From assembly GCA_029856105.1 (NCBI GenBank), contig JAHQWH010000088.1, forward strand, positions 1 through 37,431: a stretch of 37,431 bases of DNA, read 5' to 3'. This DNA comes from Promethearchaeia archaeon. Its GTDB lineage: Archaea; Asgardarchaeota; Lokiarchaeia; Sigyniarchaeales; SOKP01. This document shows, piece after piece, positions 935-21,545 of this stretch. The translations under genes and the position numbers were made by a program. The notes beneath the pieces were generated by a model that was not told the origin of the DNA, made no database searches, and saw only the letters and a program-made list of their open reading frames with translations. Position 1 is the first letter of the stretch. The number at the start of each line of letters is the position of its first letter.

Positions 935-985
935 ATCAATCTTTTAAATTTTTTTATTCTTTCTATTTTTCTTTTAATTTTTTAC
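935..985 (+). terminator. Oligo-T archaeal terminator of the thermosome gene, overlapping the island's left boundary
   Basis: T-tracts (cttttaaatttttttattctttctatttttctttt) directly after the TAA at 929. Confidence 0.55.
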
Positions 986-1061
986 TTATATTTTGAGAGA
1001 GTCCACATCCAATTATATCAATTCCGTTAATTGCCCATTTAAGTTGTTCTTTTATATCTTC
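961..1061 (+). repeat. Dispersed repeat R, copy 1 (3' end of the intact small ORF)
   Basis: ttctatttttcttttaatttttt..atattttgagagagtccacatccaattatatcaattccgttaattgcccatttaagttgtt. Confidence 0.9.
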
Positions 1062-1187
1062 GGAATTAATAGATTTGCATAACATTGTTAAATCCACTCT
1101 TACTTCAAGTAATAATGCTATAAGTTCATCGAGAGTTTGATATTTTGGACCGTCTTCTTCTTCTTTTTTTATTTTATTTTCTGATAT
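963..1187 (-). CDS. Small 74-aa hypothetical protein, not in the ORF track; source of the dispersed repeat
   Basis: Manual translation: (M)SENKIKKEEEDGPKYQTLDELIALLLEVRVDLTMLCKSINSEDIKEQLKWAINGIDIIGCGLSQNISKKLKEK*. ATA codon preceded by SD-like GGAGCTGA with an in-frame TGA just upstream. The four paralogous 3' fragments vary mostly synonymously or conservatively in this frame. Confidence 0.75.
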   Translation of the reverse strand: MSENKIKKEEEDGPKYQTLDELIALLLEVRVDLTMLCKSINSEDIKEQLKWAINGIDIIGCGLSQNISKKLKEK

Positions 1188-1348
1188 TTTGCTTCAGCTC
1201 CAAATATTTATGTTTTTCCTATTGTTATGGATGTATCTATTTAAACAAAAATTAATTCTTTTTTGAATGCTTGATATGGATTTTTTTTCACACTTGAAGT
1301 TTAAATACATATTTTAAGAAATATTTTAAAATAGGCAATAATTCAAAA

Positions 1349-3415
1349 ATGGTTAAAGATAAAGAAGAAGCTCCTTATGGTTATATTTATAAAATTACAA
1401 ATACCATCAATGGAAAGGTTTATATTGGAAAAACTGGAAAAACTATAGAAGAGAGATGGAGTAAGCATTTAGAAAATGCGAAGGAGTTAAAGAGAGCGCG
1501 AGAAGCTAATCCTCATGAAAAGAAAGAAGGGTCTCATTTAAATAATGCTATCAATAAATATGGCCCCAATGCTTTTATTGTTAATCAAGAAGATGTTGCT
1601 TATAGTAAAGAAGAATTGAATGAAAAGGAAAGATATTGGGTTAATGAATATGATTCGATGAATCCAGATAAAGGTTATAATATGACCGAGGGTGGAGAGG
1701 GAGGTAGACAGAGTCCGGAAGTAATTAAAAAAATGACGGAGATAAACCAAGAGATAGCAAGGAATCCACAAGCCCTAGAGAAAATGAGTAAAGCAATTTC
1801 AGAGAAATGGCAAGATCAAAACTATCAAAAGAATGTAAGCGAGGGTGTAGCAAATAAATGGCAACAAGCTAAGTTTCGGGAGAGACAATTAAGAGCTAAG
1901 ACAGAGGGTAAAAGGGATATCCCAGATAGGAGAGAATTCTTAAAGGAAATCCTAAATATGAACAAAAAAGATTTAAATACTAAATATGATATGGATGGTA
2001 AATGTATTAATAAAAGAATAGAAGATATGCTTGGTCATCATGGACTAAAAAATTTTTCACAAGCAAAAAAATATCTTGGAGATAAAAATCTTGACGAAGT
2101 ATTAAAGGATATTAATAAATGGCAGAAGGACCACCATCAGAAACCTGAGATAAAGAAGGAAATATTAAATAAGCGAGAATTTTTAAAAGATATTAAAAAT
2201 ATGCAAGGAAAAGAGATCGCCCAAAAATATGATATGAATAGGTCAACAATTAATAAAAGAATACAAGAAATGCTCGGGGAACATGGAGTTCATAATTATA
2301 CAGAAGCTAAAAAGTACCTTGAGAATAAAGATTTAAAAAAAGTCTTGAATGATATAAATGAAAGATTTTCTAAGCAAGCTGAGCGATATCAGGGGACAAC
2401 GGATATAACGGATAAGAAACAATTCCTCCAAGATATTCAAACTATGCAAAAGAATGAGATCAATTATAAATACGATATGGATGCCAAAACTATTAATCAA
2501 AAGATAAGAGAGATGTTAGGAGAACATGGAATTAAGAACTATACAGAAGCAAAAGAATATTTAAAAGATAAAAATGTTGATGATGTATTAAAAGAGATCG
2601 AAGAGAGAAACAAAGAAAAAGAGGTTAAACCGGAATCTCAAGGAGAGGACTCAAAAGATAAAGGGGGATCGAAATCGCAGGATGATTTAAAGGAGAAAAC
2701 AGATAAGGATTCTAAGAGCGATGAAAAAGAAGATCTAAAAGAACCCTCTAAGGAAGAGAACGAAGATAATAAATCAGATAAGAATAAAGAAAATTCAGAA
2801 AGAAATCAAAATCAAGAGGGTTCTGATGAGAATTTAAGAGAAAAGGGGGAAAAATCGGTAGAAATAGAAGAAAGTATCGAGTCTAAAAATAAAGAGACGA
2901 TGGAGGAGGATATATCCAAAGAAGAAAAGGAAAACAATGTTAGGGATTTGGAGGAGATCAAAAGCAAAGATTCGTCAAATAGTGAAGAGGAAACAAAGTG
3001 TGGTAAAAATGTTGATGATATGGAGAATTTGAATCTGACAGTGAAAGAATATGCTGGAATCGATAAGAATTCTTCTGAGAGCGAGCAAGATATAACGTGT
3101 TTAGATGGGGAGCAAGACGGTAAGAATTCTTCTAAGAGAGAGCAAGATATAACATGTTTAGATGAGAACCAAGACAGCAAAAATTCGGGATCAATAAAAG
3201 AGATATATCTTGGTAATGAAGATATAAAATCTATTGAAACTGTTAAAGATATAAAGACAGACGATGAGAAAGATTATACGGACGTTGATGAAGGAGGTAA
3301 AAAGGAACGCCCTGATTATGCGTTTATTGATAATTATTTGGATAAAACTAAGGGAAGTGAAGTAAGTGAAGGTGGCAAAAGAGCTGAAAGAGGGAAGGAG
3401 TATAGACACACATAA
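1349..3415 (+). CDS. GIY-YIG endonuclease with three 81-aa HTH-like repeats and an acidic low-complexity C-terminus
   Basis: N-terminal GYIYKITNTINGKVYIGKT...R.SKH...E...GYN motif set. Repeats start at aa 190, 271 and 352. E/D/K/S/N-rich tail from ~aa 420. Confidence 0.85.
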   Translation: MVKDKEEAPYGYIYKITNTINGKVYIGKTGKTIEERWSKHLENAKELKRAREANPHEKKEGSHLNNAINKYGPNAFIVNQEDVAYSKEELNEKERYWVNEYDSMNPDKGYNMTEGGEGGRQSPEVIKKMTEINQEIARNPQALEKMSKAISEKWQDQNYQKNVSEGVANKWQQAKFRERQLRAKTEGKRDIPDRREFLKEILNMNKKDLNTKYDMDGKCINKRIEDMLGHHGLKNFSQAKKYLGDKNLDEVLKDINKWQKDHHQKPEIKKEILNKREFLKDIKNMQGKEIAQKYDMNRSTINKRIQEMLGEHGVHNYTEAKKYLENKDLKKVLNDINERFSKQAERYQGTTDITDKKQFLQDIQTMQKNEINYKYDMDAKTINQKIREMLGEHGIKNYTEAKEYLKDKNVDDVLKEIEERNKEKEVKPESQGEDSKDKGGSKSQDDLKEKTDKDSKSDEKEDLKEPSKEENEDNKSDKNKENSERNQNQEGSDENLREKGEKSVEIEESIESKNKETMEEDISKEEKENNVRDLEEIKSKDSSNSEEETKCGKNVDDMENLNLTVKEYAGIDKNSSESEQDITCLDGEQDGKNSSKREQDITCLDENQDSKNSGSIKEIYLGNEDIKSIETVKDIKTDDEKDYTDVDEGGKKERPDYAFIDNYLDKTKGSEVSEGGKRAERGKEYRHT
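1916..2610 (+). repeat. Three intragenic repeats with 243-bp (81-aa) period
   Basis: DIPDRREFLKEI..KYDM..INKRI..MLG.HG..N...AK.YL..K repeated at 1916, 2159 and 2402. Confidence 0.9.
3062..3186 (+). repeat. 57-bp (19-aa) tandem repeat, about 2.2 copies
   Basis: DKNSSESEQDITCLDGEQD / GKNSSKREQDITCLDENQD / SKNS. Confidence 0.85.
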
Positions 3416-5345
3416 ACAAGGGACATTATTTTGGCAAACGCGAATAAAAATAACGCAAGCTCCAGGAATATTCGTACCTAAAGAGATACCAGAAAGCGCG
3501 GTTCCATTTTATCAGAAACCGGGAGATATCAGGACATTTCTATACGATCCATTTGGGAAAGAGCCTTCGCGTACTTATGGTCTTGAATTAACCGCAAATG
3601 ATAAAATAGAGGTAATTTTTTTCACTAAAGCAGAATCTGAATCTGAGGCGATACAATTAGGACACGCGTGGCTCTCAAATTTGAAATATAAATTTATAGG
3701 TCTGGATGGAAATGTTAAGGCAAAAGTTATATTAAAAAGTAGCCAAGAATTATTGAAACGAAGTCAATTATTTGAAATAGTTCTCCCTATAGGATTTATT
3801 AAGGACAAAATTAATATCGTTGAAAGATTTATTAATGCCTTTTATTATAAGAACGATCATAAGGTACAGTTATTTCTCATGTGGCGGAGAGAACCACGCT
3901 CTGAAAACCTTGAAGAGCAATCTAATTTATTCAATTTAAGGGTTTTTATAAAATACGATTTAAAGAATTTCAATATAAACGATGAGTTAGAACTTAAAGG
4001 AATTATACAATTTTTATCAATGGATATTGAAAATCGGAAGGCAGAACGAGCACGAATTCTTAACCCCTCTCATATTTCAAATTTAGATATAATAAAAGGA
4101 GACGTGTTCAAAGATGATCAAGAGCGATTAATAAATGTTGTTCAGGAAGATGTTAATTTCGATTTTCCAGAGAATTTACCGCTACCCCGATTACCACATT
4201 TAAAGAACGAAAATGTTAGATATATAGACATAAACAATGATTTTAAGAAAGAAGCGATAAGGGTAGGAAATCACATAAAAGATGGTGTTATCACTAATCA
4301 TAAAACTTACATCCCGATTAATAAACTTCCTCAAGATTTAGCAATATTTGGGAAATCTGGCAGTGGAAAAACGTATTTTCTTGCGCGATTTATAGAAGAG
4401 CTTACCAATAAATCAAAAAATGTCGGGATTTTAGTTCTAAATGTAGCAAAAGAATCTCAAGAAATTTTCTATAATAATTTTATTAAAGTCAAATATTCTG
4501 ATGAGGGATTTAATATACCTTATTTTTTTAATATTGAAAAGAAATCCCTAAAAAAACATTTGCAGGAAACTGCTACTTACATATGCGCCTCGTTAGGATT
4601 AAAAAATGTTTTTGAAAAAATTATATACCGCACCGAAGTAGGTTTTTTAGAGTTAAAAGGTAGATTACCTGAATTCTTTATAGGCTTACTAAGAGGTGTG
4701 GAGACTTACATCAAAAATAATCCATATGGTCCTGAAGAACAAGCTAATTTATTACAAGTCTTTAGAAATCGAATGAACGTTTTTAACGAAGATAAAGTTC
4801 AAAATGTATTAAAAATAACAGATACTTTACCGAAATGGATTGAGGGTTGGTTGAACGGTAAAAACATATTCCTTGATTTATCCATGAGTAGTAAATTTGT
4901 AAAAATGTTGATTGTGAACGCGATATTTCAGCTAATAAGAACAGTTACAAAAGATAGCGAAGCTGAAGAGTTAAAGCATCTCATCGTTATTGACGAAGCT
5001 CACGCTATTTTAGAAAAACCTATTACAACTAATAGCGACGACGCTGATTTTATCATGAAAGAACAGATGGCAAAAATATTTTCTGAATTATTAAAGGAAT
5101 ACCGAAGTAGAGGAGTAGGTATTATAATCGCTGATCAATCTCCCGCTCGTTTGTTTGATGACGTAGTATCTCAACCAAGCATAAAAGTTATTTTTAGGGA
5201 GGATTACCCGAATAACCTCCTTTTTTCAGAAGATCCTATTGAACGACAAATTTTAACGCAGTTAGCAAATAGACTCGCATTGGTGATAAATGGTGCAACT
5301 GGGGAAAAATATCTAATCAAAACATTGGACTATGAATTATCATAA
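3366..5345 (+). CDS. HerA/FtsK/VirB4-superfamily ATPase (DUF87-like)
   Basis: Walker A GKSGSGKT, Walker B LIVIDEAH, EYRSRGVGIIIADQSP (Arg finger and Q motif). Overlaps the end of the GIY-YIG gene; start uncertain (GTG 3366 or ATA 3402). Confidence 0.88.
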   Translation: MKVAKELKEGRSIDTHKQGTLFWQTRIKITQAPGIFVPKEIPESAVPFYQKPGDIRTFLYDPFGKEPSRTYGLELTANDKIEVIFFTKAESESEAIQLGHAWLSNLKYKFIGLDGNVKAKVILKSSQELLKRSQLFEIVLPIGFIKDKINIVERFINAFYYKNDHKVQLFLMWRREPRSENLEEQSNLFNLRVFIKYDLKNFNINDELELKGIIQFLSMDIENRKAERARILNPSHISNLDIIKGDVFKDDQERLINVVQEDVNFDFPENLPLPRLPHLKNENVRYIDINNDFKKEAIRVGNHIKDGVITNHKTYIPINKLPQDLAIFGKSGSGKTYFLARFIEELTNKSKNVGILVLNVAKESQEIFYNNFIKVKYSDEGFNIPYFFNIEKKSLKKHLQETATYICASLGLKNVFEKIIYRTEVGFLELKGRLPEFFIGLLRGVETYIKNNPYGPEEQANLLQVFRNRMNVFNEDKVQNVLKITDTLPKWIEGWLNGKNIFLDLSMSSKFVKMLIVNAIFQLIRTVTKDSEAEELKHLIVIDEAHAILEKPITTNSDDADFIMKEQMAKIFSELLKEYRSRGVGIIIADQSPARLFDDVVSQPSIKVIFREDYPNNLLFSEDPIERQILTQLANRLALVINGATGEKYLIKTLDYELS

Positions 5346-5551
5346 TACAAGCAAAATACAAGTATAGAGTGCCAGTGGATTTCCATATTTCATATCTGAT
5401 TCTACATTCTCAAGATATTCATTAATAATTTCATAAGAATTTCCTTTGAAATCATACTCTGAATTTACCATTCAATACGAACTTTCATCATGTAAGCAAT
5501 TATTGAACTAGATAAATACAAAAAAATTAAACAAAAAAAAAATAGAATCCG

Positions 5552-5566
5552 GAACACACTCCCACC
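5552..5566 (+). repeat. 15-bp direct repeat GAACACACTCCCACC, left of the Rab-like gene
   Basis: Identical copy at 6832-6846; both are preceded by A-tracts. Confidence 0.75.
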
Positions 5567-5744
5567 ACCTCACTTCTCAGCTCAAACCATGATAATTACC
5601 AGAAACTGTTTTAAAAGTTTTAGACTAAGTGAAACCATTAATTTAAAATTAAATATCCATATTTTTATTATAGTCAAAGTGTATCGTTGTTAAAAATCAA
5701 TTTGAGGAGAGAAGAAGAAAATTCAAAGGGAGGAAAAAATCTAA

Positions 5745-6779
5745 ATGTATGACCTTCTGTTTGACGTTACAGTTCTGGGTTCTGAACAAGTAGGAAAAAA
5801 AACCTTTGCGAAATGTAAATTCTTAGATTTCAACGATCACGATTACATGTTCTCTCTTGGCATGGATTTCTCTCTAAAAACAGTCGAAATCGATGAGACA
5901 ATAGTTAAGTTACGTTTCATTATATATAGTTGCGCACAATATTGGTGGGAAGAGACTCCAAAAAGTATTTTACCAAGTATGGTTCGTGGAGCATTTGGAG
6001 CAATAATACTCTACGACGTTACAAACTCAAAATCTTTAGAACGGATTCCTCAGTGGATTAAGGTCGTAAAAGATAACGCAGGGGAGGTTCCAATTTTATT
6101 AGTAGGAAATAAACTCGATTTAAAACAAGAACGAGAAATAACAATAGAACAGATAGAAAAGATTAAAAATGAGCATGATATAGCGTCATCGATGGAGATT
6201 TCCGTAAAAACGGGAGAAAATATGGAAAAAATGGTTTCGAACTTAACCCGTATGATACTAAATAGCTATAAATCGATTGCGAAAGCTAGAATCGATGTCG
6301 ATGAATACAAAAAACGGATGATAACATACATAAATCAAGCAGAAGAAGGAGTTAATTTACCCGATGATTATCAAAATTTAGCAGAATTGATCGAACGGTT
6401 AAAGAACGCAATTAATACTATTATACATAGGAACGAACGAAAGGAAAAGATCGTTTATGGTTATGTCCTTTTAATTCGGAATTGTTTCGACTTATTAAAA
6501 GAACCTATTCTTCTCCTTGATAAAGAAATATTACAAACAAACATTGATCAAGCCTATAAAAGTATCCACGATATTTTGAGACGAGATCGATCAATCTATT
6601 ACAACACCCATTTAATGATGATGATGTTTCTTGGAACAGATCAAACTAGACAATTCTTCAGCAAGTATAAAGTAAAAGAACCCAGATCTCTAAAGCCCAT
6701 ATTACCTAAAAAATGGTACTTATATGCTTTATACCTCATATTTGCTATTGTAATTTTTATATTACTAAAAGCTCTTTAA
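5745..6779 (+). CDS. Rab/Ras-like small GTPase domain (degenerate G1/G3) with helical extension and C-terminal TM anchor
   Basis: GSEQVGKKT (G1-like), LGMDFSLKTV, GAIILYDVT, ILLVGNKLDL (G4), EISVK (G5). DxxG is absent. Hydrophobic tail WYLYALYLIFAIVIFILL. Confidence 0.85.
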   Translation: MYDLLFDVTVLGSEQVGKKTFAKCKFLDFNDHDYMFSLGMDFSLKTVEIDETIVKLRFIIYSCAQYWWEETPKSILPSMVRGAFGAIILYDVTNSKSLERIPQWIKVVKDNAGEVPILLVGNKLDLKQEREITIEQIEKIKNEHDIASSMEISVKTGENMEKMVSNLTRMILNSYKSIAKARIDVDEYKKRMITYINQAEEGVNLPDDYQNLAELIERLKNAINTIIHRNERKEKIVYGYVLLIRNCFDLLKEPILLLDKEILQTNIDQAYKSIHDILRRDRSIYYNTHLMMMMFLGTDQTRQFFSKYKVKEPRSLKPILPKKWYLYALYLIFAIVIFILLKAL

Positions 6780-6831
6780 TTAACAGAAAACTTTTGGATA
6801 AAACATAAAATCGAAAAAAAATTAAATTCAA

Positions 6832-6846
6832 GAACACACTCCCACC
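6832..6846 (+). repeat. 15-bp direct repeat GAACACACTCCCACC, right of the Rab-like gene
   Basis: Identical to 5552-5566. Confidence 0.75.
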
Positions 6847-6950: not shown

Positions 6951-7673
6951 TTATGTTACAGAATGCAAAACAAAAGGAAAATAAACAAACATTATTTCGA
7001 TCTTAGAATTAAAACATAAAAATTGCTCCATTCTTATATCTCCAAAGCATGCAAACCCACAACTATAATGATATTCTAAATTCATTCGAACTAAAAAAGT
7101 GTCATTTAAGGCAATAGTATAAGAATTACTGGGAGACAAGGGGATTTGAGTAAAATTTAGATACCAATTGCCCTCCCAATTTGACGTATATTTATTAGTG
7201 GAATAATCCCAACATCGATCAGCCGCAAATATTTCTGTGTGGTTTGAATACTCTGCTTTAATAATATTATCATTGTTGTACGTGAGATATATTAACGATT
7301 CATTAGTAACATCCACTGAGTAAATAAAATTAAATCGATCCCCTGGAAATAAATGAAATCTATTCTTTTCTCCATCGATTTTCAGCTTTAAGGATTCTAT
7401 GAATTCTCTATCAATGTTATCATAATAATAATCAGAAGTATTTAATGGACCTTCCCCCCAGGAATCTCGATAATGGCAATACTTTTTATATTCAAATAAT
7501 TCGCTCTTTTCGATAACAGTCTCAAAATTTTCAACGTTTCCTTTATAATTTATCTCGTAATAGATTCTTGATAAAGCGGTAGAATGATTAACAATTAATA
7601 AGATTGGTATGATTACTCCAGCCGTTATTATTACTCCTATTATAACGGAGATATATAATAGCTTTTTTCTAAT
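6951..7673 (-). CDS. Membrane-anchored/exported hypothetical protein, ~240 aa (longer than the 121-aa track ORF)
   Basis: Frame stays open upstream of 7316 as far as 7679. ATT at 7673, after GTGAGGGA, gives (M)RKKLLYISVIIGVIITAGVIIPILLIV, a basic-plus-hydrophobic signal anchor. Confidence 0.7.
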   Translation of the reverse strand: MRKKLLYISVIIGVIITAGVIIPILLIVNHSTALSRIYYEINYKGNVENFETVIEKSELFEYKKYCHYRDSWGEGPLNTSDYYYDNIDREFIESLKLKIDGEKNRFHLFPGDRFNFIYSVDVTNESLIYLTYNNDNIIKAEYSNHTEIFAADRCWDYSTNKYTSNWEGNWYLNFTQIPLSPSNSYTIALNDTFLVRMNLEYHYSCGFACFGDIRMEQFLCFNSKIEIMFVYFPFVLHSVT

Positions 7674-7841: not shown

Positions 7842-8380
7842 ATGCTTTACCGAAATGGATTGAAGGTTGGTTGACCGGTAAAAACATCTTCCTTGATTTA
7901 TCCATGAGTAGTAAATTTGAAAAAATGTTGATTGTGAACGCGATATTTCAGCTAATAAGAACAGTTACAAAAGATAGCGAAGCTGAAGAGTTAAAGCATC
8001 TCATAGTTATTGACGAAGCTCACGCTATTTTAGAAAAACCTATTACAACTAATAGCGACGACGCTGATTTTATCATGAAAGAACAAATGGCAAAAATATT
8101 TTCTGAATTATTAAAGGAATACCGAAGTAGAGGAGTAGGTATTATCATCGCTGATCAATCTCCCGCTCGTTTGTTTGATGACGTAGTATCTCAACCAAGC
8201 ATAAAAGTTATTTTTAGGGAAGATTATCCGAACAACCTCCTTTTTTCAGAAGATCCTATTGAACGACAAATTTTAACACAGTTAGCAAATCGACTTGCTT
8301 TGGTGTTAAATGGTGCTACAGGTGAGAAGTACTTAATCAGAACATTAGAACATAGCCTAGATAAATTCAAGAATAGTTAA
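7842..8380 (+). pseudogene. Orphan 3' fragment of the HerA-like ATPase with an alternative C-terminus
   Basis: Aligns to 4822-5329 at offset 3020. Lacks Walker A; ends LIRTLEHSLDKFKNS instead of LIKTLDYELS. Confidence 0.92.
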
Positions 8381-8845: not shown

Positions 8846-9030
8846 TCTTTTTTTTTTAATTTTTTATTAAATATTTTTAAATTTAATCTCAAGAAACAAA
8901 TTTAGGCGTAAGACTTATTTTAATAAAAATATAAAAGAAATTAAACACCATAAATATTTAATGATAAAAACCAAAATAAAGCAATAAATGATTATTTCAC
9001 TTGTTATATATAAAAGAGGTCTATAAAAAA

Positions 9031-9612: not shown

Positions 9613-9637
9613 AAAAAAAGAATTAATTTTTTTTATC

Positions 9638-12961: not shown

Positions 12962-13061
12962 AAGGAATTATATGACAGAGTTAAAAAAAATTTCCCTGAA
13001 TATCTCAATAAGCTAAATCAAGCTATAAAAAAATTTTAATCTATACTGTAAAAGATAAAAA

Positions 13062-13979
13062 TTAAAAAGGTTTCGAAGAACATCTACCTCCTTTCGATGT
13101 CCTCATGTCAGAAAAACTAGAAGCGACAAGGTTGTGTGAATGGAAGAGCCGTTGATCTTCAAGAGCTTGACAAAGTTTACTCAGAAAACTAATAAATCCC
13201 TTAATTTGATTTTCTACTATTAAATCATTAAAAAAACCTTCTCTAAATCCCTCCTTTTGCCACATTTGGTTTTCATGTAAAAATAATGGATACTCTTTGA
13301 TAAGTTTTGAAGGAAAAAATTGTGGCCAACGAGGATTATATGGTATTTTCCCCCCATATTTTTTTGAGAAATCAACTCTACCTTGTACGTTATATGGTAT
13401 ATCCCAGTTCAAAGATATTCCCTTCCGCATAATATATAGATAATCAAATCTTTCACTTGGTTTTATATCATTCTCATTTACAATTTTTGTTATATTTTTT
13501 AAAATTGAACCAAATTTCTTCCAAATTGTATCATAAGCGAAAATATAACAGAGAGGTGGATGAACTTGCCATCGAGGATTACCATCCAATCTTTTAAAGA
13601 AATTCATCCTCCTTAAATCTCTGATCTTTAAAAGCGTTTCTTTTAGATTAGTATTTCCTAAGGTTGTTTTTACTTCAATACACATAGAAACACCTTCAAT
13701 GAGAAAGTATTCCGTTTCTGAAAAAATTCGAGGGTATTCGGTTGAATTCCAGATAACTATATCTTGCTCAGTTGATTCCTTTCCATCTTTATCAAATAGA
13801 ATTTTACTTCTTGTTAACTCAAATTTTCTGGGTAAGAAAGATTTTAGGAGATTGATGAGAACAGCCTCATTTTCTCTTCCTTTTATTGCCTGATGATTAT
13901 AAAGAGAATTTAAATTACTAATACTTTTATAAAATTTTTCATAAATTAATTCCCATAAGAGGTTCTTCTTTGATTTCAT
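13062..13979 (-). CDS. NucC/DUF6602-like restriction-fold endonuclease
   Basis: GRENE..L..FLP.KF....FD.DG.ES.EQDIVI...IEGV...IEVKT pattern (D..ExK). Confidence 0.7.
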   Translation of the reverse strand: MKSKKNLLWELIYEKFYKSISNLNSLYNHQAIKGRENEAVLINLLKSFLPRKFELTRSKILFDKDGKESTEQDIVIWNSTEYPRIFSETEYFLIEGVSMCIEVKTTLGNTNLKETLLKIRDLRRMNFFKRLDGNPRWQVHPPLCYIFAYDTIWKKFGSILKNITKIVNENDIKPSERFDYLYIMRKGISLNWDIPYNVQGRVDFSKKYGGKIPYNPRWPQFFPSKLIKEYPLFLHENQMWQKEGFREGFFNDLIVENQIKGFISFLSKLCQALEDQRLFHSHNLVASSFSDMRTSKGGRCSSKPF

Positions 13980-14147
13980 ATATAGATCTTTAGGTAAAAC
14001 TAATATATAATTTTGAAGTTAAAAGATATTTCTTGTTTAAACAGGCTCTAATTTAATACAAAAGCATAAATATTATAAAAAAATAATAATGGGTTAAAAC
14101 TCCGGTTTTTATAATAAAATCATACAACTAATAGAGGTATAATATAA

Positions 14148-14720
14148 ATGTGTGCGGATTTATCCTTAGTAGAAATAATAATATTATTAATTTCTATAAT
14201 TGGATTAATATTAAGCATCATAAACTTGGTAAAAAGTGCATTACATGAGAAAAGATATAAATACCAGCTTAAAATCAAATTGAAAAAAGATTTGTTAACA
14301 AAATGGTTTGAGATTGCAAAAGATTTTGTAAAACTAGTAGAATTTAGTAGAATTGAGTCAACGAACACTCATAAATACTATTACTATGAGATAAAGAAGG
14401 AAAATAGTAATGAATATTTGGATTTAGAGAATAAAAAAGGTTTTATTAATAGATACGAGTATGCTATGACTAATTTTACAAAATTCTGCCAATATCCTGA
14501 TGAGACTGCTGGACCCTTTGATATACCAAGATTATTAAATGTCAATAAAAATATGGATATTGAATTTATTAGTTATCCATTATCGTTAGATCCTGGAAAT
14601 GAAGAAAAAATAAAAGAAGAGTTTTTAGAAGACGTTAAAAATCATGGTCAAATGAATGGTATAAGAATTAAGGGATTTCGCTGGTGGAAGATGAAAAAAA
14701 TCTTAGGAATTCTTTATTGA
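14148..14720 (+). CDS. Hypothetical protein with N-terminal TM helix
   Basis: 190-aa ORF; GAGGT upstream; hydrophobic residues 7-28. Confidence 0.65.
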   Translation: MCADLSLVEIIILLISIIGLILSIINLVKSALHEKRYKYQLKIKLKKDLLTKWFEIAKDFVKLVEFSRIESTNTHKYYYYEIKKENSNEYLDLENKKGFINRYEYAMTNFTKFCQYPDETAGPFDIPRLLNVNKNMDIEFISYPLSLDPGNEEKIKEEFLEDVKNHGQMNGIRIKGFRWWKMKKILGILY

Positions 14721-14893
14721 GATTTTAACTTAAAAAAAAAATTATTGAAGAGAGACCTTTGAGTATCCTAAATTATATTATTTGAAGATAATATGATTCC
14801 ATTAGTTCTCAAGTAAGAAATTCTAATTATTATATAATATAAATTATACATTTTATTGTAGTTTTTAAATCTCTAACCCTAATAAAGAATCAA

Positions 14894-15157
14894 ATGTTAA
14901 ACTTTTTGGATATTTCTGACTTCAATTTATTTTATTTAATTCTAATCCTTATTTTAGTTGGACTTAATATAGTTTTTTTCATATCTCAGAAAAGAGAAAA
15001 GTCAGCTATTAACCTAAAAATTCTCATCATTATTCTATTGGTAATTACAATAATTATTTTCGTTTCGACTTCGTTAAATTATCTTACTTCTACGGATGAA
15101 TCAATAAAATCCTCAGAAAATGTACTTTTTAACAATATATTTCTATTTTTCTTTTAA
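14894..15157 (+). pseudogene. Membrane-protein gene apparently truncated by repeat R copy 2
   Basis: Two TM segments; the last codons (FLFFF*) are supplied by repeat sequence beginning at 15141. Confidence 0.55.
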
Positions 15158-15210
15158 TATTTTAGCGATATTTTGAGTGAGCTCACATCCAACAATATCA
15201 ATTCCGTTAA
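15141..15210 (+). repeat. Repeat R copy 2 (orphan 3' end of the small ORF)
   Basis: Minus strand encodes VNGIDIVGCELTQNIAKILKEK*. Confidence 0.9.
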
Positions 15211-15395
15211 CGAGTATAGTTAAATAATATTTGGGCCTCAAAACTGTTAAGATCAGTTTGAAAAATTTTTATAATTTTAATAATCTATTCGTTTTTAAGT
15301 TCTACCTCTTTTTTTTAGTTGTTCCATTTTTTTCTTTAATCTGTGATTTTCAGACGATCACAATTTATTTATAAAACAATGAAGGAGTAAGATTT

Positions 15396-16925
15396 ATGAA
15401 GATAAGTATATTAAACGATGTATTAGGGCCAATTCTGCATGGACCTAGTAGTTCACATACCGCTGCTTCCTATAGTATTGGTCGGTTGACCCATATGTTA
15501 TGTAAGAACGAAATAAAGGAAATTCATATTACATTTGATTCAAAGGGTTCTTTTGATAAGACATATAAATCTCAAAATGGAGATGTTGCGTTCTTATCGG
15601 GGATACTTAATTTAGGTGTTGATGTTCCTGACTTTTTTAATTCTAAAAATGTAGCCAGTGAAGAAGGAATTAGAAGTATCTTCGATTCTAAAGATATTCC
15701 TGAAGCAGATCATCCAAACTATATGTCAATTAATATTCCTGCTAAGAAATTAACAATAGTAGCGAAATCCATAGGAGGAGGCATGATTCTGATAGAAAAG
15801 ATTAATAGGTGGAAAGTTAAGCTTAAAGGAAATAATTATAATATATTAATCGAATTTCTTACAAATTCCAAGGAAGAACTACTGAATTTAATTCAATCAT
15901 TTTCTAATTCTCCAGAAAAAATACATATCCAAGATGATGAGAGGTATTCTTTTATTCAACTAAAGAATCCAAATAAGTTTAAAGATGAATTTGTTAATAA
16001 ATTAAAATCTCTAGATTATATTTCTAATATCTGGACTACTCAACCTATACTTCTTCCGATTCATGGGACTCCGTTGTTTAAAAATAGCTTTGAGATGCTA
16101 AAGCTTGCAGTTGAGAATAAGTATTCTCTCGGAGAGATTGGGCTTATGTACGAAACAGATTTATTGAACGTAGATGAAAAATCCATTTTAGAAGAAATGG
16201 AAAAAAGGATTTTAGTAATGTTTTCTTCTATTGAAAAGGGTTTGGAAAAGAAAAATTCGTGTATGAAATTATTGGAGCATTCTGCAAGTAATATCCAAAA
16301 AAAAGAGAATCTGCTTTTCAGTTCTGGAATTAATTTAAGAAGTTCTTATAGGGCTATGGCAGCTATGGATACAGCTTCTTCAGGGGGACTGATCTGTGCG
16401 GCCCCTACAGGCGCTTCTTGTGGTGTTATTGCTTCTGTTCTTTATACACTCCATTACGATTGTAATATTAATATGAAAAAGATTATTAAATGTGCACTTG
16501 CAGCAGGAGTGATTGGTTTAATAAACGGCATGAATTCAACTTTTGCTGCTGAAATAGCGGGATGTCAAGTTGAGATAGGAATGGCTGGAGCAATGGCAGC
16601 GGCAGCAGTGATCGAAGCTGCTAATGGTAGTCCTACAGCAGCCACAGAAGCGGCAGCGATTGCATTGCAAAACACAATGGGATCTGTATGCGATCTTGTT
16701 GCGGGATTCTGTGAAATCCCTTGTCACACTAGAAACGCAGTGGCAGCGTCAAATGCGTTTATTTGTGCTGATCTTATTATAGGTGGTTATAATAATCCAA
16801 TAAATCTTGATGATTCAATCCAAGCATCGTTTGAGAGCGGTAAGATGTTACCCTCTCAATTACGTTGTACTTCATTAGGAGGAATCGCGATCACAGAATC
16901 AGCAAAAAAATTGGGGAGAAAATAA
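15396..16925 (+). CDS. sdaA: Fe-S L-serine dehydratase, fused beta and alpha subunits
   Basis: GPILHGPSSSHTA, SIGGG, AAPTGASCG, GCQVEIG, GSVCDLVAGFCEIPC, LRCTSLGGIA. Confidence 0.9.
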   Translation: MKISILNDVLGPILHGPSSSHTAASYSIGRLTHMLCKNEIKEIHITFDSKGSFDKTYKSQNGDVAFLSGILNLGVDVPDFFNSKNVASEEGIRSIFDSKDIPEADHPNYMSINIPAKKLTIVAKSIGGGMILIEKINRWKVKLKGNNYNILIEFLTNSKEELLNLIQSFSNSPEKIHIQDDERYSFIQLKNPNKFKDEFVNKLKSLDYISNIWTTQPILLPIHGTPLFKNSFEMLKLAVENKYSLGEIGLMYETDLLNVDEKSILEEMEKRILVMFSSIEKGLEKKNSCMKLLEHSASNIQKKENLLFSSGINLRSSYRAMAAMDTASSGGLICAAPTGASCGVIASVLYTLHYDCNINMKKIIKCALAAGVIGLINGMNSTFAAEIAGCQVEIGMAGAMAAAAVIEAANGSPTAATEAAAIALQNTMGSVCDLVAGFCEIPCHTRNAVAASNAFICADLIIGGYNNPINLDDSIQASFESGKMLPSQLRCTSLGGIAITESAKKLGRK

Positions 16926-17053
16926 TCAATTTTTCATTACATTAAATTGTGTGCGATCTCGTGAAAAAAACTTTCAATGTTAAGTCCTGTTAGCGCTTCG
17001 GTTCAAAGTTTTTTAATAAATATTCTGCATTTTTTCTATGGTTTAGTTTTTCT

Positions 17054-17143
17054 TTCTATTTTTCATTTAATTTTTTCTTGATATTTTGAGATAGTCCACA
17101 GCCGACTATATCAATTCCGTTTAAGTTCTTCTTTAATATCTTC
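17054..17143 (+). repeat. Repeat R copy 3 (with an ~11-bp internal deletion)
   Basis: Minus strand encodes NGIDIVGCGLSQNIKKKLNEK*; similarity resumes at ttaagttcttctttaatatcttc. Confidence 0.9.
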
Positions 17144-17262
17144 TTACTTCTTTTTGAACTGAAAAATTTGACAAAATAGTAAGATTTAAATTATTATCAA
17201 GCTTAATTATCAATGCAAAATCTAATAATTAATCAAATTAAAATTACTCAAATGTGAGAATT

Positions 17263-17589
17263 ATGGTTATGGTTGTATCTACATCTTGGTTTCCAACAAG
17301 TAAATCCGCTGAAGTAGGGAAAAAATATCTTGAAGTCTTGAAACAATTTCCTCGGGATAAAACAATTTCAAAAGTTATTGTACCCGTAGGCGTAAGAACA
17401 ACATCAGATGGAATGAAATCCTTTTCGATTTTTGAAGTAAAAGAAGGGAAATTAAAGGAATTCATGAACATAGCTTACAAGCAAATACTCATTTACTCTG
17501 AAATTGAGGGATATCAAACTGAAATGGAATTTTACATGTCAGGAGTAGAGGCATTACCACTTGTAGGACTTGAAATGCCTGAATTATAG
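17263..17589 (+). CDS. Small hypothetical protein X, copy 1
   Basis: Close paralog of 20102-20422; ATG after GTGAG (the track starts at GTG 17254). Confidence 0.8.
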   Translation: MVMVVSTSWFPTSKSAEVGKKYLEVLKQFPRDKTISKVIVPVGVRTTSDGMKSFSIFEVKEGKLKEFMNIAYKQILIYSEIEGYQTEMEFYMSGVEALPLVGLEMPEL

Positions 17590-17776
17590 ATCAAAAATAA
17601 TTAAATTTTTTTTATCTTTTTTTTTTTTTAATTTTTTACTGATATTTAATTGATTATTCAATATGGGGTTTTTCAAAGCAAGCACCTAACAGAATCAGCT
17701 ATTTTATATTGACTACGACTTACTATGCCTTTTTCCTTTCTTTACCTAAAAATCTAAGTCTTTTCATTATTTTTAA

Positions 17777-18400
17777 TTAATCTTTTGAAAGAGCAAGAAT
17801 GATCTTATTTAGTAATTGGAGGAAATATTCATCAGACTCAAAAGTATACTCATCATAAATATGGCGATGGATTAATGTATCAACAATCCTATGAATATGT
17901 TTTTCCTTTCCCTCAAACTTAAGATCTTCTTGAGGGAACTTTTCTAAAAGAGTTTTAATAGGCTTAAAAAAAAGGTTCGTCTCGATCTGACGAGCTTCTT
18001 TGGATCTGATATCATTTTTTAATTTATCATAAAAGCTAATGTTAGAAAGAACTTCGCTTTCCATCGCAGCTAAGAATAGGCGATTTTTTCTATGATTCTC
18101 AATTAATGCTAATAAATATGTGTTTAACCCATCTGAAAAGTTATTAATTTCCTTGTCAGCGAAAAAATTTTGAGAGTTCAAATCTTCTGAAAATTCAATG
18201 GTTGATTTTACTATTATTTCTTTCAGAAGATCTATCTTCCCCTTCTTAAAATGATGATACAAGGTTCCAACACTAACGTTAGCTAGATAAGTTATATCAC
18301 GGATATTTGTATTGCTATACCCTTTCTCTAATATCAATTTTTTAGCGATTTCCAGAATTTTATCTTTAGCAGACTTTTTACTCATATCTTTAATATACAT
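17777..18400 (-). CDS. TetR/AcrR-family transcriptional regulator
   Basis: KILEIAKKLILEKGYSNTNIRDI...VSVGTLYHHF.K HTH; start may be ATG 18385. Confidence 0.92.
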   Translation of the reverse strand: MYIKDMSKKSAKDKILEIAKKLILEKGYSNTNIRDITYLANVSVGTLYHHFKKGKIDLLKEIIVKSTIEFSEDLNSQNFFADKEINNFSDGLNTYLLALIENHRKNRLFLAAMESEVLSNISFYDKLKNDIRSKEARQIETNLFFKPIKTLLEKFPQEDLKFEGKEKHIHRIVDTLIHRHIYDEYTFESDEYFLQLLNKIILALSKD

Positions 18401-18419
18401 ATAATAAAATAAAAAACTT

Positions 18420-18503
18420 TCGAATTCGATTCGGTTTCGATATCTTTAAATATTATTATGAATATTTTTATCATAATAACTAGAAAGCGAATCGGTTTCT
18501 AGT
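18420..18503. promoter_or_regulatory. Two related palindromic operators in the divergent TetR/hydrolase promoter
   Basis: ACTAGAAAGCGA-A-TCGGTTTCTAGT (18479-18503, one mismatch) and TCGAATTCGA-T-TCGGTTTCGA (18420-18440). Confidence 0.7.
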
Positions 18504-18532
18504 ATAATCATTAGAAAAAGAGGTTAAAATAA

Positions 18533-19813
18533 ATGGCAAAACAAAAAAAGAACCAAAAAAATGAAAGAAGATCCCCTGATGCAGGTTTTAAAATCTTTAA
18601 AGACCCAGAAATGGATTGGACTTTTGCCCGTACACTCCAATACATCTATGAAAACGCAGCAGAAGTTGGAGAATGTCTCCGTGTAGCCCGTAGAATTAAT
18701 GAAAAGAATAGAGAGAGCTGGATCGAAGAATGGGCTAATCTTGCCTTAAAAAAAGAAATTAAGGCCATAGAATCCCTTACTAAAGGACACAGAATTAGTG
18801 CAAGAGAATTATTTTTATGTGCTTCGAATTACTACAGAACCGCTGAATATGCAACACCACCTTCACACCCACGCTTTCATGAACTTTGGGAGAAAAGTGT
18901 TGAGTGTTTTCATAAGGCTTGCCCATTATTTAGTCCCCCAATTCAGATAGTTGAGATATCATTTAATAATTTTAAATTACCAGGGTATTTCTGGAGCCCA
19001 GATACAACTAATACTCATCATCCCACTCTAATTGCCGCAGGTGGAAACGATACTTCACTAGAAGAAGTTTTTTTCTTATGTGGACCAGCAACAGTAAGGC
19101 GAGGATATAATTTTTTTACATTTGAACATCCTGGTCATCGAGGAGCTGTTCATCTCTATCCTAATTGTACCAGACGACATGATTATGAAATACCTTATAA
19201 AGTAGCGATCGATTTTCTTAAGACATTTAATGGCGTGGATGATAGAATTGCGTTAACGGGATTTAGTTACGGTGGATATGTAGCTACTAGAGTAGCAATT
19301 TATGAAAACCGTATTAAAGCTGTTATTCCAAATACACCTATTATAGATATGGTCAAAATGCAAAAATCTTTTGGAGGTAATTCTCGAAAACGTAATCTTT
19401 TACTTAAAATTCCAGCTTCTTACCTTAATCGACTTATAGAACGAATGCTTAGCAAGATGCCATTACAATATACCCTCGCAAAATATGTTCTATGGGTATT
19501 TGGAATGCATGAACTCTCTTGGACTGAGGTTATTAAGAAGGATATGTATAAAAAGCACAATATTAAAGATCAGATTCATAAAATAAAATGCCCGGCTCTC
19601 GCAATAGTGAGCGATAGTGAAGGAGAAGAACTATTAACTCAAGCAAAAGAGTTCATTAAAGGTATTTCTTCAGATGTCAAAGAAATTTACATTTTTAATT
19701 TAGATAAAGATGGCTCAAATGATCATATTCAACTTGATAACCGAATAAGTGGAAATCAAATAATGTTTGATTGGCTTGATGAAATTTTTGATTACAACGC
19801 TCAATTGATATAG
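18533..19813 (+). CDS. Alpha/beta hydrolase (FrsA / dihydroxypseudooxynicotine-hydrolase-like)
   Basis: Nucleophile elbow GFSYGG; ASNYYRTAE, LPGYF and GGND motifs; C-terminal His and FDWLD. Confidence 0.85.
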   Translation: MAKQKKNQKNERRSPDAGFKIFKDPEMDWTFARTLQYIYENAAEVGECLRVARRINEKNRESWIEEWANLALKKEIKAIESLTKGHRISARELFLCASNYYRTAEYATPPSHPRFHELWEKSVECFHKACPLFSPPIQIVEISFNNFKLPGYFWSPDTTNTHHPTLIAAGGNDTSLEEVFFLCGPATVRRGYNFFTFEHPGHRGAVHLYPNCTRRHDYEIPYKVAIDFLKTFNGVDDRIALTGFSYGGYVATRVAIYENRIKAVIPNTPIIDMVKMQKSFGGNSRKRNLLLKIPASYLNRLIERMLSKMPLQYTLAKYVLWVFGMHELSWTEVIKKDMYKKHNIKDQIHKIKCPALAIVSDSEGEELLTQAKEFIKGISSDVKEIYIFNLDKDGSNDHIQLDNRISGNQIMFDWLDEIFDYNAQLI

Positions 19814-19915
19814 GAGAGTCTGAGAAATTTACAAAATTCAGGATTAGTATAAATTTATTAAATACATTTTTTTCTTTTTTTTCTCTAAAACTAATGAATA
19901 GTATCTAAATTTCCA

Positions 19916-19994
19916 TTCTATTTTTCTTTTAATTTTTCTTTTATATTTTGAGAAAGCCCACATCCAACTATATCAATTCCGTTGATTGCCCATT
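19916..19994 (+). repeat. Repeat R copy 4
   Basis: Minus strand encodes WAINGIDIVGCGLSQNIKEKLKEK*. Confidence 0.9.
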
Positions 19995-20101
19995 GAACTG
20001 AATAATTTGACAAAATAGTAAGATTTAAATTATTATCGAGCTTAATTATTAATGTAAAATCTAATTATCAATTAAATTGAAATTACCCAAAGGTGAGAAT
20101 T

Positions 20102-20422
20102 ATGGTTGTAACTACATCTTGGTTTCCAGCAAGTAAAGCCTCTGAAGTAGGGAAAAAATATCTTGAAGTCTTGAAACAATTTCCTCGGGATAAAACAATT
20201 TCAAAAGTTATTGTACCCGTAGGCGTAAGAACAACATCAGATGGAATGAAATCCTTTACGATTTCTGAAATAAAAGAGGGGAAATTAAAGGAATACATGG
20301 ACCTAGCTTACAAGCAAATACTCATTTACTCTGAAATTGAGGGATATAAAGCTGAAATGGAATTTTACATGTCAGGAGTAGAGGCATTACCACTTGTAGG
20401 ACTTAAAATGCCTGAATTATAG
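20102..20422 (+). CDS. Small hypothetical protein X, copy 2
   Basis: Paralog of 17263-17589; SD AGGTGAG before ATG 20102 (the track starts at GTG 20093). Confidence 0.8.
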   Translation: MVVTTSWFPASKASEVGKKYLEVLKQFPRDKTISKVIVPVGVRTTSDGMKSFTISEIKEGKLKEYMDLAYKQILIYSEIEGYKAEMEFYMSGVEALPLVGLKMPEL

Positions 20423-20543
20423 CTCAAAAATAATTAAAATTTTCTTTTTTTATTCTATAAGTAAATATTGATATTATTGCTTAGATTTTTCAAACCTATA
20501 ATGTTATTATTTCTATATTAATGTATTATAAAGTTGATTTAAA

Positions 20544-21407
20544 TTGAGGATAGATTTCCACTGTCATATTTTTCTTAATGTTAACGCGTTTCAGGCATTC
20601 AAATTATACAATCAAAAGTTTAGCGGCTACGGGTTCTACAAAAGAATTCTTAAAATGCTGGAAGGGATTAAAACTATCAACACAGATAATATTATAAAGA
20701 AGACATTATATCATTTAGAAAGAGTTAAAATAAATAAGGTAGTTATGCTCCCAGTAAGTGAAAAGGAAAACGTGGCTGTAAGTGAGTGGGCACGGAATGC
20801 ACCTGATATCATAATTCCTTTTTTCAATCCCCCAGAGAGGCTGGATGATAGTAAAGGCATAAAAGAGATTATAGAAAAGGCAATTTTAGATGATAATTAT
20901 AAGGGATTTAAAATAATGGTATCCTTTAGAAAAAAGAAATTGAATGACAAAATCTTATATCCGGTTTTAGAAACGGCGCATGAGCATAAATTACCTGTCC
21001 TATTCCATACGGGTTATCCTCCACCTGGAACTCAGAAAAGCGTTCTAACTTTTTCTAATCCTATTGTTATTGATGAGTACGTTAATTCATTTCCGGATGC
21101 TAAAATTATCATAGCGCATATGGGATATCCTTGGGTTGATAATGCTCTTGCTTTAGCGGTTCAATATCCCAATATATATTTAGATATTAGCAATATGACC
21201 TATATGATGCCAAATCGTTTAAAGGACTTTCTGGTATATGCTAAAGAGCTTATTGGATTGGATAAAATATTATTTGGATCGGATGGGTTTGTCCCAGAAA
21301 TGATTGAAATTGCTGTAAATTACTTTAATAACGTCAATTTTCTAACTAAGGAGGAAATTGATAACATTTTAGGGTTGAACGCTCAAAAATTGTTAAAAAT
21401 TGAATAG
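20544..21407 (+). CDS. Amidohydrolase-family (Amidohydro_2-like) metal-dependent hydrolase
   Basis: IDFHCH, GFK, PVLFHTG, IAHMG, YLDIS, LFGSD. Confidence 0.9.
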   Translation: MRIDFHCHIFLNVNAFQAFKLYNQKFSGYGFYKRILKMLEGIKTINTDNIIKKTLYHLERVKINKVVMLPVSEKENVAVSEWARNAPDIIIPFFNPPERLDDSKGIKEIIEKAILDDNYKGFKIMVSFRKKKLNDKILYPVLETAHEHKLPVLFHTGYPPPGTQKSVLTFSNPIVIDEYVNSFPDAKIIIAHMGYPWVDNALALAVQYPNIYLDISNMTYMMPNRLKDFLVYAKELIGLDKILFGSDGFVPEMIEIAVNYFNNVNFLTKEEIDNILGLNAQKLLKIE

Positions 21408-21457
21408 AAAAAGACTATGCTGCGTTTTTAATTGATAATAATATAATTTGTTTTTCT

Positions 21458-21545
21458 TTCTATTATTCTTTTAATTTTTTAGCTATATTTTGAGAGAGTC
21501 CACACCCGATTATATCAATTGCGTTGATTACCCATTTAAGTTGTT
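21458..21545 (+). repeat. Repeat R copy 5 (candidate right boundary of the island)
   Basis: Minus strand encodes QLKWVINAIDIIGCGLSQNIAKKLKE*. Confidence 0.9.

Follow-up and report, generated by a model that had tools for sequence, protein, structure and literature searches.

Orphan gene tails divide a variable cargo island behind the thermosome gene of a Promethearchaeia archaeon

The stretch of DNA analysed here (the window) is an entire 37.4-kb contig (37,431 nt; JAHQWH010000088.1; GC content ~30%) from a 3.66-Mb metagenome-assembled genome (MAG; GCA_029856105.1) of a Promethearchaeia archaeon, 92% complete. Its Ras-family, profilin and thermosome genes agree with an Asgard origin. Just past the stop codon of a thermosome gene begins a variable island, which is found genus-wide in this group of Promethearchaeota (Lokiarchaeia). 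The island opens with three genes, hereafter the trio, encoding a small open reading frame (ORF), a GIY-YIG nuclease and a HerA-like ATPase, and these are followed by ~20 kb of cargo split by detached 3' ends ("orphan tails") of the two outer trio genes, four from the small ORF (R1 to R4) and two from the ATPase (A1 and A2). The array looks like the product of an undescribed, homology-anchored mode of gene gathering. The features that define it are as follows.

3-929, plus strand: 3' part of the thermosome (Cpn60/TCP-1) gene (PF00118, E 2e-93), with its stop at 929; fixed left border of the island.
945-1048, minus strand: R0, the proximal R copy, comprising the small-ORF tail and the spacer to the thermosome stop; T-rich on the plus strand; reference of repeat family D1.
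963-1193, minus strand: small ORF, whose frame spans 76 codons; translation probably begins at an ATA (1187-1185), giving ~74 aa.
1349-3415, plus strand: I-TevI-like GIY-YIG nuclease (PF01541, E 1.5e-8), divergent from the small ORF.
3366-5345, plus strand: HerA-like ring ATPase (PF01935), whose ORF overlaps the GIY-YIG ORF by 50 nt.
5307-5367, plus strand: A0, tail of the ATPase gene, comprising its final 13 codons and a further 22 nt (repeat family D8), where the synteny of relatives ends.
7842-8380, plus strand: A1, orphan ATPase tail (residues ~490 to the end), an open frame with a different set of last 9 residues.
10323-10383, plus strand: A2, orphan ATPase tail of 61 nt, 87% identical to 5307-5367.
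15125-15228, minus strand: R1, orphan small-ORF tail, from self-comparison and translation.
17038-17168, minus strand: R2, orphan small-ORF tail (matched copy 17038-17141) of ~35 codons with a 12-nt deletion.
19900-20003, minus strand: R3, orphan small-ORF tail, from self-comparison and translation.
21442-21545, minus strand: R4, orphan small-ORF tail, the copy nearest to R0 (90%).

Comparison of the window with itself yielded five co-oriented copies of the ~100-nt repeat R (BLAST E 5e-18 to 1e-32). Translated on the minus strand, each copy reads as the final 20-35 codons of the small ORF (..NGIDIVGCGLSQNI.KKLKEK, then the stop) plus ~10 nt, and only the first, R0, runs on into a whole small ORF. 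The trio, the four small-ORF tails and the two ATPase tails had been located by an earlier sequence-only reading of this DNA, and our analysis places all of them identically within a pattern that proved larger than noted, also taking in the tail of a DEDDh exonuclease gene and repeats flanking a Ras-like GTPase gene. Since the layout recurs in many independent assemblies, and a metagenome contig (L185) is 100% identical to it over 2.8 kb, it is not an assembly artefact. Within this genome R is confined to this contig, and no match was found in the viral contigs of IMG/VR; a dispersed miniature inverted-repeat transposable element and a viral att site were rejected on these grounds. Across all data searched, every match to R came from a Promethearchaeota MAG or a sediment metagenome.

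The small ORF is itself a conserved frame, with 63-91% identity across 8 aligned genomes and differences mostly at third codon positions. Its family has no Pfam hit at E < 0.1 and matches only unnamed clusters in the Atlas, and its product is predicted to form a two-helix hairpin (AlphaFold2 mean confidence, pLDDT, of 81). No ATG, GTG or TTG stands at its start (window positions 1185-1200, minus strand, and 32 related loci). A Shine-Dalgarno-like GGAGYTGA lies 6 nt ahead of an ATA in 28 of 32 genomes, the others having ATT (2), ATC (1) or ATG (1), and this conserved spacing of GGAG(C/T)TGA suggests that AUA serves as the start codon. Decoding of the in-frame TGA before the ORF as selenocysteine was considered and rejected, given that the upstream frame contains stops in 4 of 9 genomes and that the TGA lies within the Shine-Dalgarno-like motif.

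We collected ~80 related loci (L numbers below, with G numbers for genomes) through a protein search of the genus, a species-level genome collection and a metagenome scan with the 24-nt R core, the last of which returned mostly species-level relatives; the comparison set is thus made up of genus genomes and sediment metagenomes. In every related locus that has a thermosome on its contig, the thermosome ortholog lies directly before R. Using a 330-position hidden Markov model (HMM) built on the full small-ORF region, we counted 134 unique R copies, of which 83 are proximal and 51 internal; the 181 hits are all co-oriented. The core of R (..AAAAAATTAAAAGAAAAATAGAAAG..) is conserved genus-wide, with ~36-48 nt being highly conserved. 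Among 72 distinct proximal copies, 33 belong to full ORFs and 39 are stumps, such that the site behind the thermosome, which the sequence-only reading had expected to vary between relatives, retains an R stump next to the thermosome in the trio-less loci (39/72). Internal copies have a fairly sharp downstream edge, 7-23 nt past the small-ORF stop. We also considered whether internal copies reach into the thermosome coding tail, and rejected this possibility, as there is only weak likeness near the stop and the HMM hits end at that same edge.

R copies are breakpoints of synteny and rearrangement, and the cassettes between them have recently been exchanged between lineages. The L-serine dehydratase cassette bounded by R1 and R2 is 98.1%, 98.6% and 99.1% identical to its counterpart in G017 (upstream region, coding sequence and downstream region, respectively), with similar values for L184, whereas the adjoining R2 is only 86% (G017) and 81% (L184) identical and other shared genes range from 87% to 94%. 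The left edge of this block of 98-99% identity lies ~5 nt beyond R1. A DUF3303 cassette has different neighbours in five loci yet retains an R copy on either side. The R0-to-R1 interval of L217 holds the small ORF with URO-D and B12 genes in place of the 14-kb defence unit of the window, and the junction of R1 with the dehydratase cassette is unchanged. We also considered whether a single R-by-R event could turn L216 into L168, or L168 into L216, and rejected this, as the R edges do not fit and the two loci belong to separate species.

Differences among R copies fall at codon positions 1, 2 and 3 in counts of 124, 81 and 217 for proximal copies and 55, 51 and 97 for internal copies. Given this excess at third positions, the stumps derive from diverged functional alleles and not from duplication in place. 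The trio itself is mosaic: its left half is nearest to L220 and its right half to L198, so that homologous recombination between diverged alleles is visible at the locus.

The ATPase gene has left similar traces. Synteny is lost with every relative no more than 20 nt from the ATPase stop, and the homology shared with L198, L221 and L172 ends at 5326-5347. A1 is 95% identical to the resident ATPase gene over 508 nt (7842-8349; blastx 93%, E 6e-110), and its type of tail is found at the terminus of the intact ATPase of L172 and of an orphan copy in L198, as would be expected if a tail of one type, together with its cargo, had displaced a tail of the other. Arrays of ATPase tails occur in other loci, namely in L221, where three orphan tails are accompanied by cargo that includes a type IIG restriction-modification enzyme, and in L198, which has one plus an equivalent of A2 that there also lies beside the DEDDh gene. 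Together with the widespread small-ORF ends, these arrays bear out the expectation that orphan ends would recur in relatives. Scars of the same type are found at genes unrelated to the trio, chiefly the following two.

9638-10210, minus strand: DEDDh 3'-5' exonuclease (PF00929; PADLOC DEDDh), with its tail at 9627-9686 (repeat family D10).
5521-6846, plus strand: Ras-like GTPase module (gene 5745-6779; PF00071, E 6e-25) between 47-nt imperfect direct repeats.

An orphan copy of the DEDDh tail lies at 12902-12961. The repeat pair around the Ras-like module (D16; 5521-5566 and 6800-6846) has a related pair in L219, in a different setting, and the region downstream of ORF 6951-7316 bears the same type of scar. 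A 600-nt duplication (17048-17656 and 19910-20483) includes paralogous genes for 111-aa and 109-aa proteins. No remnant of the GIY-YIG gene, of gene 5' parts or of internal parts of the core genes was found in the intergenic DNA of the window. That the DEDDh tail and other unrelated tails carry the same scar points to a general process. As a separate observation, the Ras-family GTPase has a long helical extension and a C-terminal membrane helix, and is located inside the defence-type cargo beside an unknown 121-aa ORF.

Orphan tails of this kind could also be debris without a role, if whole units carrying the small ORF, with or without the GIY-YIG and ATPase genes, had been duplicated in tandem or stacked through ordinary allelic recombination and their redundant cores then deleted. 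Units consisting of a full small ORF and one gene flanked by R do exist (G015, G010, G002, L177 and L200), A1 is still open and 95% identical to the resident gene, and the upstream edges of R and its cargo junctions vary; the outward orientation of the outer core genes would, moreover, explain why only 3' ends survive. Such a history should, however, have left 5' or internal remnants of core genes in intergenic DNA, of which there are none, and an R stump directly beside an ATPase stump is never seen. Loci such as L216 (four R copies in 4.4 kb), L168 and L176 would demand many full insertions and equally many large deletions. The fairly sharp downstream edge of R, and the repeated finding of R copies as exact borders of exchanged blocks of 98-99% identity, further argue against accretion followed by decay, which we consider distinctly unlikely.

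A Pfam scan of 30 window ORFs identified no recombinase, transposase or reverse transcriptase, in agreement with the sequence-only reading, and no tyrosine or serine recombinase (PF00589, PF00239) was found on any locus contig in the genus search. PF00589 has no match in this genome, and serine recombinases (PF00239) are rare in the genus and located elsewhere than the locus. No XerA-like homolog was detected by phmmer among 1674 ORFs from 1.05 Mb of locus DNA. The cassette proteins scanned were ordinary enzymes or surface proteins, with no recombinase among them, and the repeat-bounded units hold no integrative element with an integrase of its own. With a query taken from a locus of a serine recombinase, phmmer gave its sole hit, an ORF of 420 aa that lies outside the array in L081 (G017:C49), between the histone deacetylase and profilin genes (E 5e-67); this ORF is probably TnpB-like, and the window contains no such ORF.

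A recombinase encoded elsewhere on the chromosome, for instance a XerA-like protein, could nevertheless act in trans on R as its attachment site, in the manner of integrative mobile elements exploiting Xer (IMEX) at dif or of integrons at attI. The presence of a single locus per genome, the strict co-orientation, the conserved core of ~36-48 nt, the integron-like cassette sizes and the conservation of a tyrosine recombinase in 38 of 42 genus genomes would all fit such a system. R itself does not resemble such a site. No dyad symmetry was seen by eye in an alignment of 38 copies and no inverted repeat lies within R, and of seven single-stranded DNA folds compared with shuffled sequences (R0 and R4 on both strands; R1, R2 and R3 on the plus strand) six gave z-scores of -0.06 to +1.08, only R2 reaching -2.2. 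In addition, the edges of R are not fixed, the different ATPase and DEDDh tails behave as R does, and homologous cassette genes occur in either orientation. The polypurine/T-tract core can also be explained as a coding end plus a terminator, and on the plus strand R copies may act as oligo-T terminators. We therefore regard site-specific recombination in trans as improbable. Likewise, neither an adjacent IntI nor attC-type folding palindromes are found, as an integron would have, and R, with its polypurine/T-rich core lacking a dyad, is not a dif-like site with inverted arms of the type used by IMEX.

The two larger trio proteins are readily classified. The nuclease has an I-TevI-like catalytic GIY-YIG domain, for which the best solved match is the catalytic domain of I-TevI (1mk0, E 1e-8), with the Tyr, Tyr, Arg, His, Glu and Asn positions conserved. 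This domain is followed by three 81-aa repeats resembling helix-turn-helix (HTH) modules (243 nt each, ~1926-2605; repeat family D4) and an acidic low-complexity tail. The ATPase has a P-loop core with the HerA fold and thus belongs with the HerA/FtsK-type ring ATPases: it matches HerA and mad8 in PADLOC and the HerA profile 4d2i in the Protein Data Bank (E 5.5e-7), and its AlphaFold2 model (pLDDT 82) retrieves HerA, HerA-NurA, SIR2-HerA and DUF4297-HerA as top Foldseek matches (E 1e-12 to 8e-17, with 8e-17 for HerA). An unassigned N-terminal domain of ~290 aa lies beyond this HerA core. The trio is most likely a nuclease-motor pair for defence or DNA processing, i.e., a candidate of the HerA-effector type, with a small partner protein. 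Like HerA-NurA, SIR2-HerA (Nezha) and DUF4297-HerA complexes, it combines a HerA-fold ATPase with an overlapping nuclease gene in a defence island; unlike them, the partner is an I-TevI-like GIY-YIG protein with HTH repeats and an acidic tail, and the ATPase carries the extra N-terminal domain.

The middle of the GIY-YIG gene (1926-3174, including a 57-nt tandem repeat at 3061-3174) is hypervariable among close relatives, with identity down to 52% as against 93-94% in the ATPase. More distant paralogs of this ATPase were also observed in a conserved operon, between a gene for an M50-like membrane protein and one for a giant acidic protein of 1300-1800 aa without a Pfam domain (contig C191 of G000, L038:645-8859; also L033, L035, L039 and L040), and in L036 the upstream partner of the paralog is a SIR2-TPR protein.

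Co-occurrence of the core genes elsewhere, with variable cargo, was a further part of the sequence-only claim, and the trio is indeed found at the same site in at least 10 lineages. The GIY-YIG gene is linked to full-length small ORFs, being present in 18 of 33 such loci, as opposed to one borderline case in 39 stump loci. Wherever the contig is long enough, the ATPase gene follows that of the nuclease (10 lineages, namely nine with a full small ORF plus L120; also the window and G030). Presence of the GIY-YIG gene is patchy (11 of 42 genus genomes), and this patchiness, along with the linkage to a full small ORF, is compatible with spread by homing and equally with vertical descent accompanied by loss. 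More distant GIY-YIG homologs were found elsewhere, unaccompanied by the ATPase. Neither the small ORF nor the trio was seen away from the thermosome locus, with the exception of a second ATPase copy, 71% identical, on G068:C128. There is no sign of recent trio transfer, the ATPase being 74-78% identical in species whose thermosomes are ~82% identical.

These data bear directly on the most far-reaching part of the sequence-only reading, namely that the locus is a mobile capture platform with the trio as its machinery. As a self-contained capture element, the trio would cut R and the ATPase tails with its GIY-YIG nuclease and HerA-like motor, and repair from related elements would add cargo. 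This would amount to cassette homing, akin to that of homing-endonuclease genes that stand alone and bring with them a duplicate of the end of the gene they target. In its favour, the orphan ends correspond precisely to the two ends at which the trio faces outwards, synteny of the trio is kept at this site across lineages while the cargo varies, and ATPase-tail arrays occur only behind the trio, recurring in L221 and L198. The nuclease also has intact catalytic positions and three HTH-like modules, and its gene is strictly linked to the full small ORF. For HeimM2 of Heimdallarchaeum, Wu et al. (2022, PMC8813620) suggest that a homing-endonuclease homolog was recruited to carry out site-specific integration. 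Yet arrays of two to four R copies are commonest where GIY-YIG and ATPase genes are absent (G028, G011, G027, G016, L216, L168 and L176), and in four species that do carry the trio, no orphan tail of R or of the ATPase is found within 14-23 kb. The trio is, in addition, restricted to one locus and bears no sign of recent transfer, its nuclease and ATPase genes overlap as in a fixed operon, and the nearest structures are HerA-nuclease complexes of defence or repair. The scars of the DEDDh tail and of the Ras-flanking repeats lie outside the trio altogether. Of the earlier claim, homology-anchored gain of cargo at gene ends, with no integrase, is the part that fits the data better, and the evidence does not support the trio as the machinery by which a mobile element captures genes; we consider such an element, and cassette homing by it, unlikely. 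A broader version for Asgard archaea, in which recombinase-free cassette acquisition beside essential genes would rely on an I-TevI-like nuclease and a HerA motor cutting the tails, with donor cargo between tails being copied in, is a tentative proposal that we regard as doubtful.

Taken together, these observations lead us to favour, with a probability of roughly one half, a reading in which the window is one case of a recombinase-free, tail-anchored accretion island, built by a general recombination process and not by a dedicated element. New modules would be brought in by homologous recombination, with short, conserved ends of genes serving as anchors. Chief among these would be R, comprising the terminal 50-105 nt of a small resident ORF together with ~7-22 nt past its stop, and behind the GIY-YIG/HerA operon the ATPase tail would fill the same role. 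A diverged relative, or a further copy of the genome, would supply donor DNA that carries this tail beside different cargo. A circularised piece of tail plus cargo could then enter through one crossover, or a break could be repaired by copying from a tail-cargo-tail donor. Each entry would add cargo and leave a co-oriented, diverged copy of the tail, and the resident R copies would in turn act as portable homology, allowing the cassettes between them to be swapped, lost or replaced. The trio would be a conserved resident of the first slot and the best candidate for making the initiating cut, even though the data do not require it; that the nuclease could initiate capture in this way is plausible.

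Several points weigh against this proposal. Stretches of 70-100 nt at 80-90% identity are a poor substrate for ordinary homologous recombination, and the proposal would require DNA to pass between Asgard cells. No strain-level pair differing by one cassette was found among the mostly species-level relatives returned by the metagenome scan, and no circular or excised form was seen, the route being deduced from end products. The upstream edge of internal R copies varies from ~50 to 165 nt before the small-ORF stop (HMM positions 110-240), and the cargo-side junctions of R differ among lineages; later deletion would also produce such variable edges and junctions. Of the cassette genes, 51 are in plus and 26 in minus orientation, and homologous ones are found both ways relative to R, a mixture not predicted by a pure R-by-R single crossover. 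Finally, the XerA-like gene of 38 of the 42 genus genomes, although always on a contig other than that of the locus, is a possible trans-acting factor.

The cargo from 5346 to ~15100 is defence-type, and the distal cassettes are metabolic or regulatory. With its cluster of defence genes in a variable hotspot, the locus qualifies as a defence island. In addition to the modules given above, the cargo comprises:

9001-9612, plus strand: PDC-S69-type CxxC/PD-(D/E)xK defence candidate (PADLOC PDC-S69, E 2.6e-47), a single-gene module.
10547-15157, region: further defence-type cargo, with an unknown 198-aa protein, two small membrane ORFs and the HEPN, cyclase and nuclease genes below.
11218-11991, minus strand: HEPN protein (Pfam).
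12164-12811, plus strand: cyclase resembling those of cyclic-oligonucleotide-based antiphage signalling systems (CBASS) (PADLOC cyclase, E 1e-10).
13062-13979, minus strand: NucC-like DUF6602 nuclease (PADLOC PD_DExK, E 2e-25; NucC, E 4e-15).
15229-17037, plus strand: L-serine dehydratase cassette (gene 15396-16925; PF03313).
17169-19899, region: TetR/hydrolase cassette, with a 111-aa ORF (17254-17589, plus strand), a TetR gene (17777-18400, minus strand) and an alpha/beta hydrolase gene (18533-19813, plus strand).
20004-21441, plus strand: amidohydrolase cassette, with the 109-aa paralog (20093-20422) and an amidohydrolase gene (20544-21407; PF04909).
21546-25250, region: remaining variable region, with a membrane protein, an HTH protein and GH4.

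Several of these modules recur in relatives. The PDC-S69 module (720 nt) is 91% identical to a copy at another locus of G017 and 94% identical to one in L198, and G017 and L205 each carry the amidohydrolase cassette, 92-93% identical, flanked by R copies as well. In L172, the ATPase is followed by 1.4 kb, an R copy and then the 111-aa gene at 93% identity. Across the related loci we identified 42 distinct R-to-R cassettes, mostly single-gene and with a median length of ~1.1 kb. Recurrent ones carry serine dehydratase, SMP-30-like, DUF3303 (104 aa), 111-aa family, or URO-D and B12-binding protein genes, and other cargo includes hydrolases, short-chain dehydrogenase/reductase (SDR) enzymes, beta-propeller or beta-helix surface proteins, and TPR and SIR2 proteins. 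The commonest single-gene cassettes are those of the 104-111-aa family (17254-17589 and 20093-20422) and of the 104-aa DUF3303 protein (L168:6854-7168). Within the defence-type cargo, positions 12164-13979 form a CBASS-like minimal pair, in which the cyclase-like gene is convergent with the NucC-like DUF6602 nuclease gene and the orphan DEDDh tail lies between them.

The island shares features with several known systems. The tycheposon-built islands of Prochlorococcus, described by Hackl and colleagues in 2023, reportedly grow by tandem accretion of integrative elements at the 3' ends of tRNA or housekeeping genes. Like such islands, the one described here occupies a single fixed site by a conserved gene, contains co-oriented partial 3' ends between modules, many of them free of integrases, and varies between species. 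Unlike them, it has no tyrosine recombinase at or near any of the ~80 loci, the edges of R are not fixed, several different gene tails are used, and the repeated end is that of a small ORF in the first slot and not that of the conserved host gene. The window also has no tRNA gene and no match to an Rfam family, both of which were searched for. With integrons, the array shares rows of mostly single-gene cassettes, one co-oriented repeat and a single platform, a likeness in outcome only: there is no IntI, R is not an attC-like hairpin, cassette genes lie in both orientations, and R originates from the end of a coding gene.

Fungal mitochondrial mobile ORFs, such as those at Allomyces atp6 studied by Paquin and colleagues in 1994, are said to be free-standing homing-endonuclease genes that bring along a duplicate of the host-gene end. 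The likeness to these and to HeimM2 lies in the I-TevI-type GIY-YIG nuclease in the first slot, the displaced ends diverged mainly at synonymous sites, the lack of an integrase and the insertion beside a highly conserved gene. The differences are that the nuclease belongs to a fixed operon with a HerA-like ATPase, that many cargo genes do not encode nucleases, and that R arrays persist without the nuclease. Polymorphic toxin loci (CdiA-CT/CdiI, Rhs; Zhang et al. 2012, PMC3482391) similarly show a full gene followed by its own 3' fragments, each with different genes, as the ATPase does here. The island is nonetheless not such a locus, as the repeated part is the conserved C-terminal core of the ATPase (84-95% identity) and the downstream genes are mutually unrelated, defence-type and without immunity partners; the small-ORF fragments, being upstream of the full gene, have the opposite geometry. 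A study of hotspots in the archaeal group ANME-1 (PMC13385816) leaves direct repeats, flanking repeats and integrases unmentioned.

The locus thus provides a recurrent and easily recognised structure in which single defence and enzyme genes are stacked and swapped at one site without a known recombinase. Asgard genomes are large and mosaic, and few integrases or transposons have been tied to their gene gain. If the mechanism is general, it would be one of the main ways in which genes move among the prokaryotes most closely related to eukaryotes. Orphan gene tails would also serve as a simple marker for accessory islands in MAGs, and the I-TevI-like nuclease and HerA-like ATPase are indicated as a candidate enzyme pair.

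To the right of the array, synteny with relatives resumes at ~25250, following a short patch at 23544-23709, and L179 carries an R copy beside the HTH gene. The right flank kept in relatives contains genes for a cyclase (from 25253), a 742-aa protein, histone deacetylase and profilin. This stable flank also includes two large conserved proteins without a Pfam match, the one of 742 aa (27352-29580) and another of 711 aa (35043-37178).

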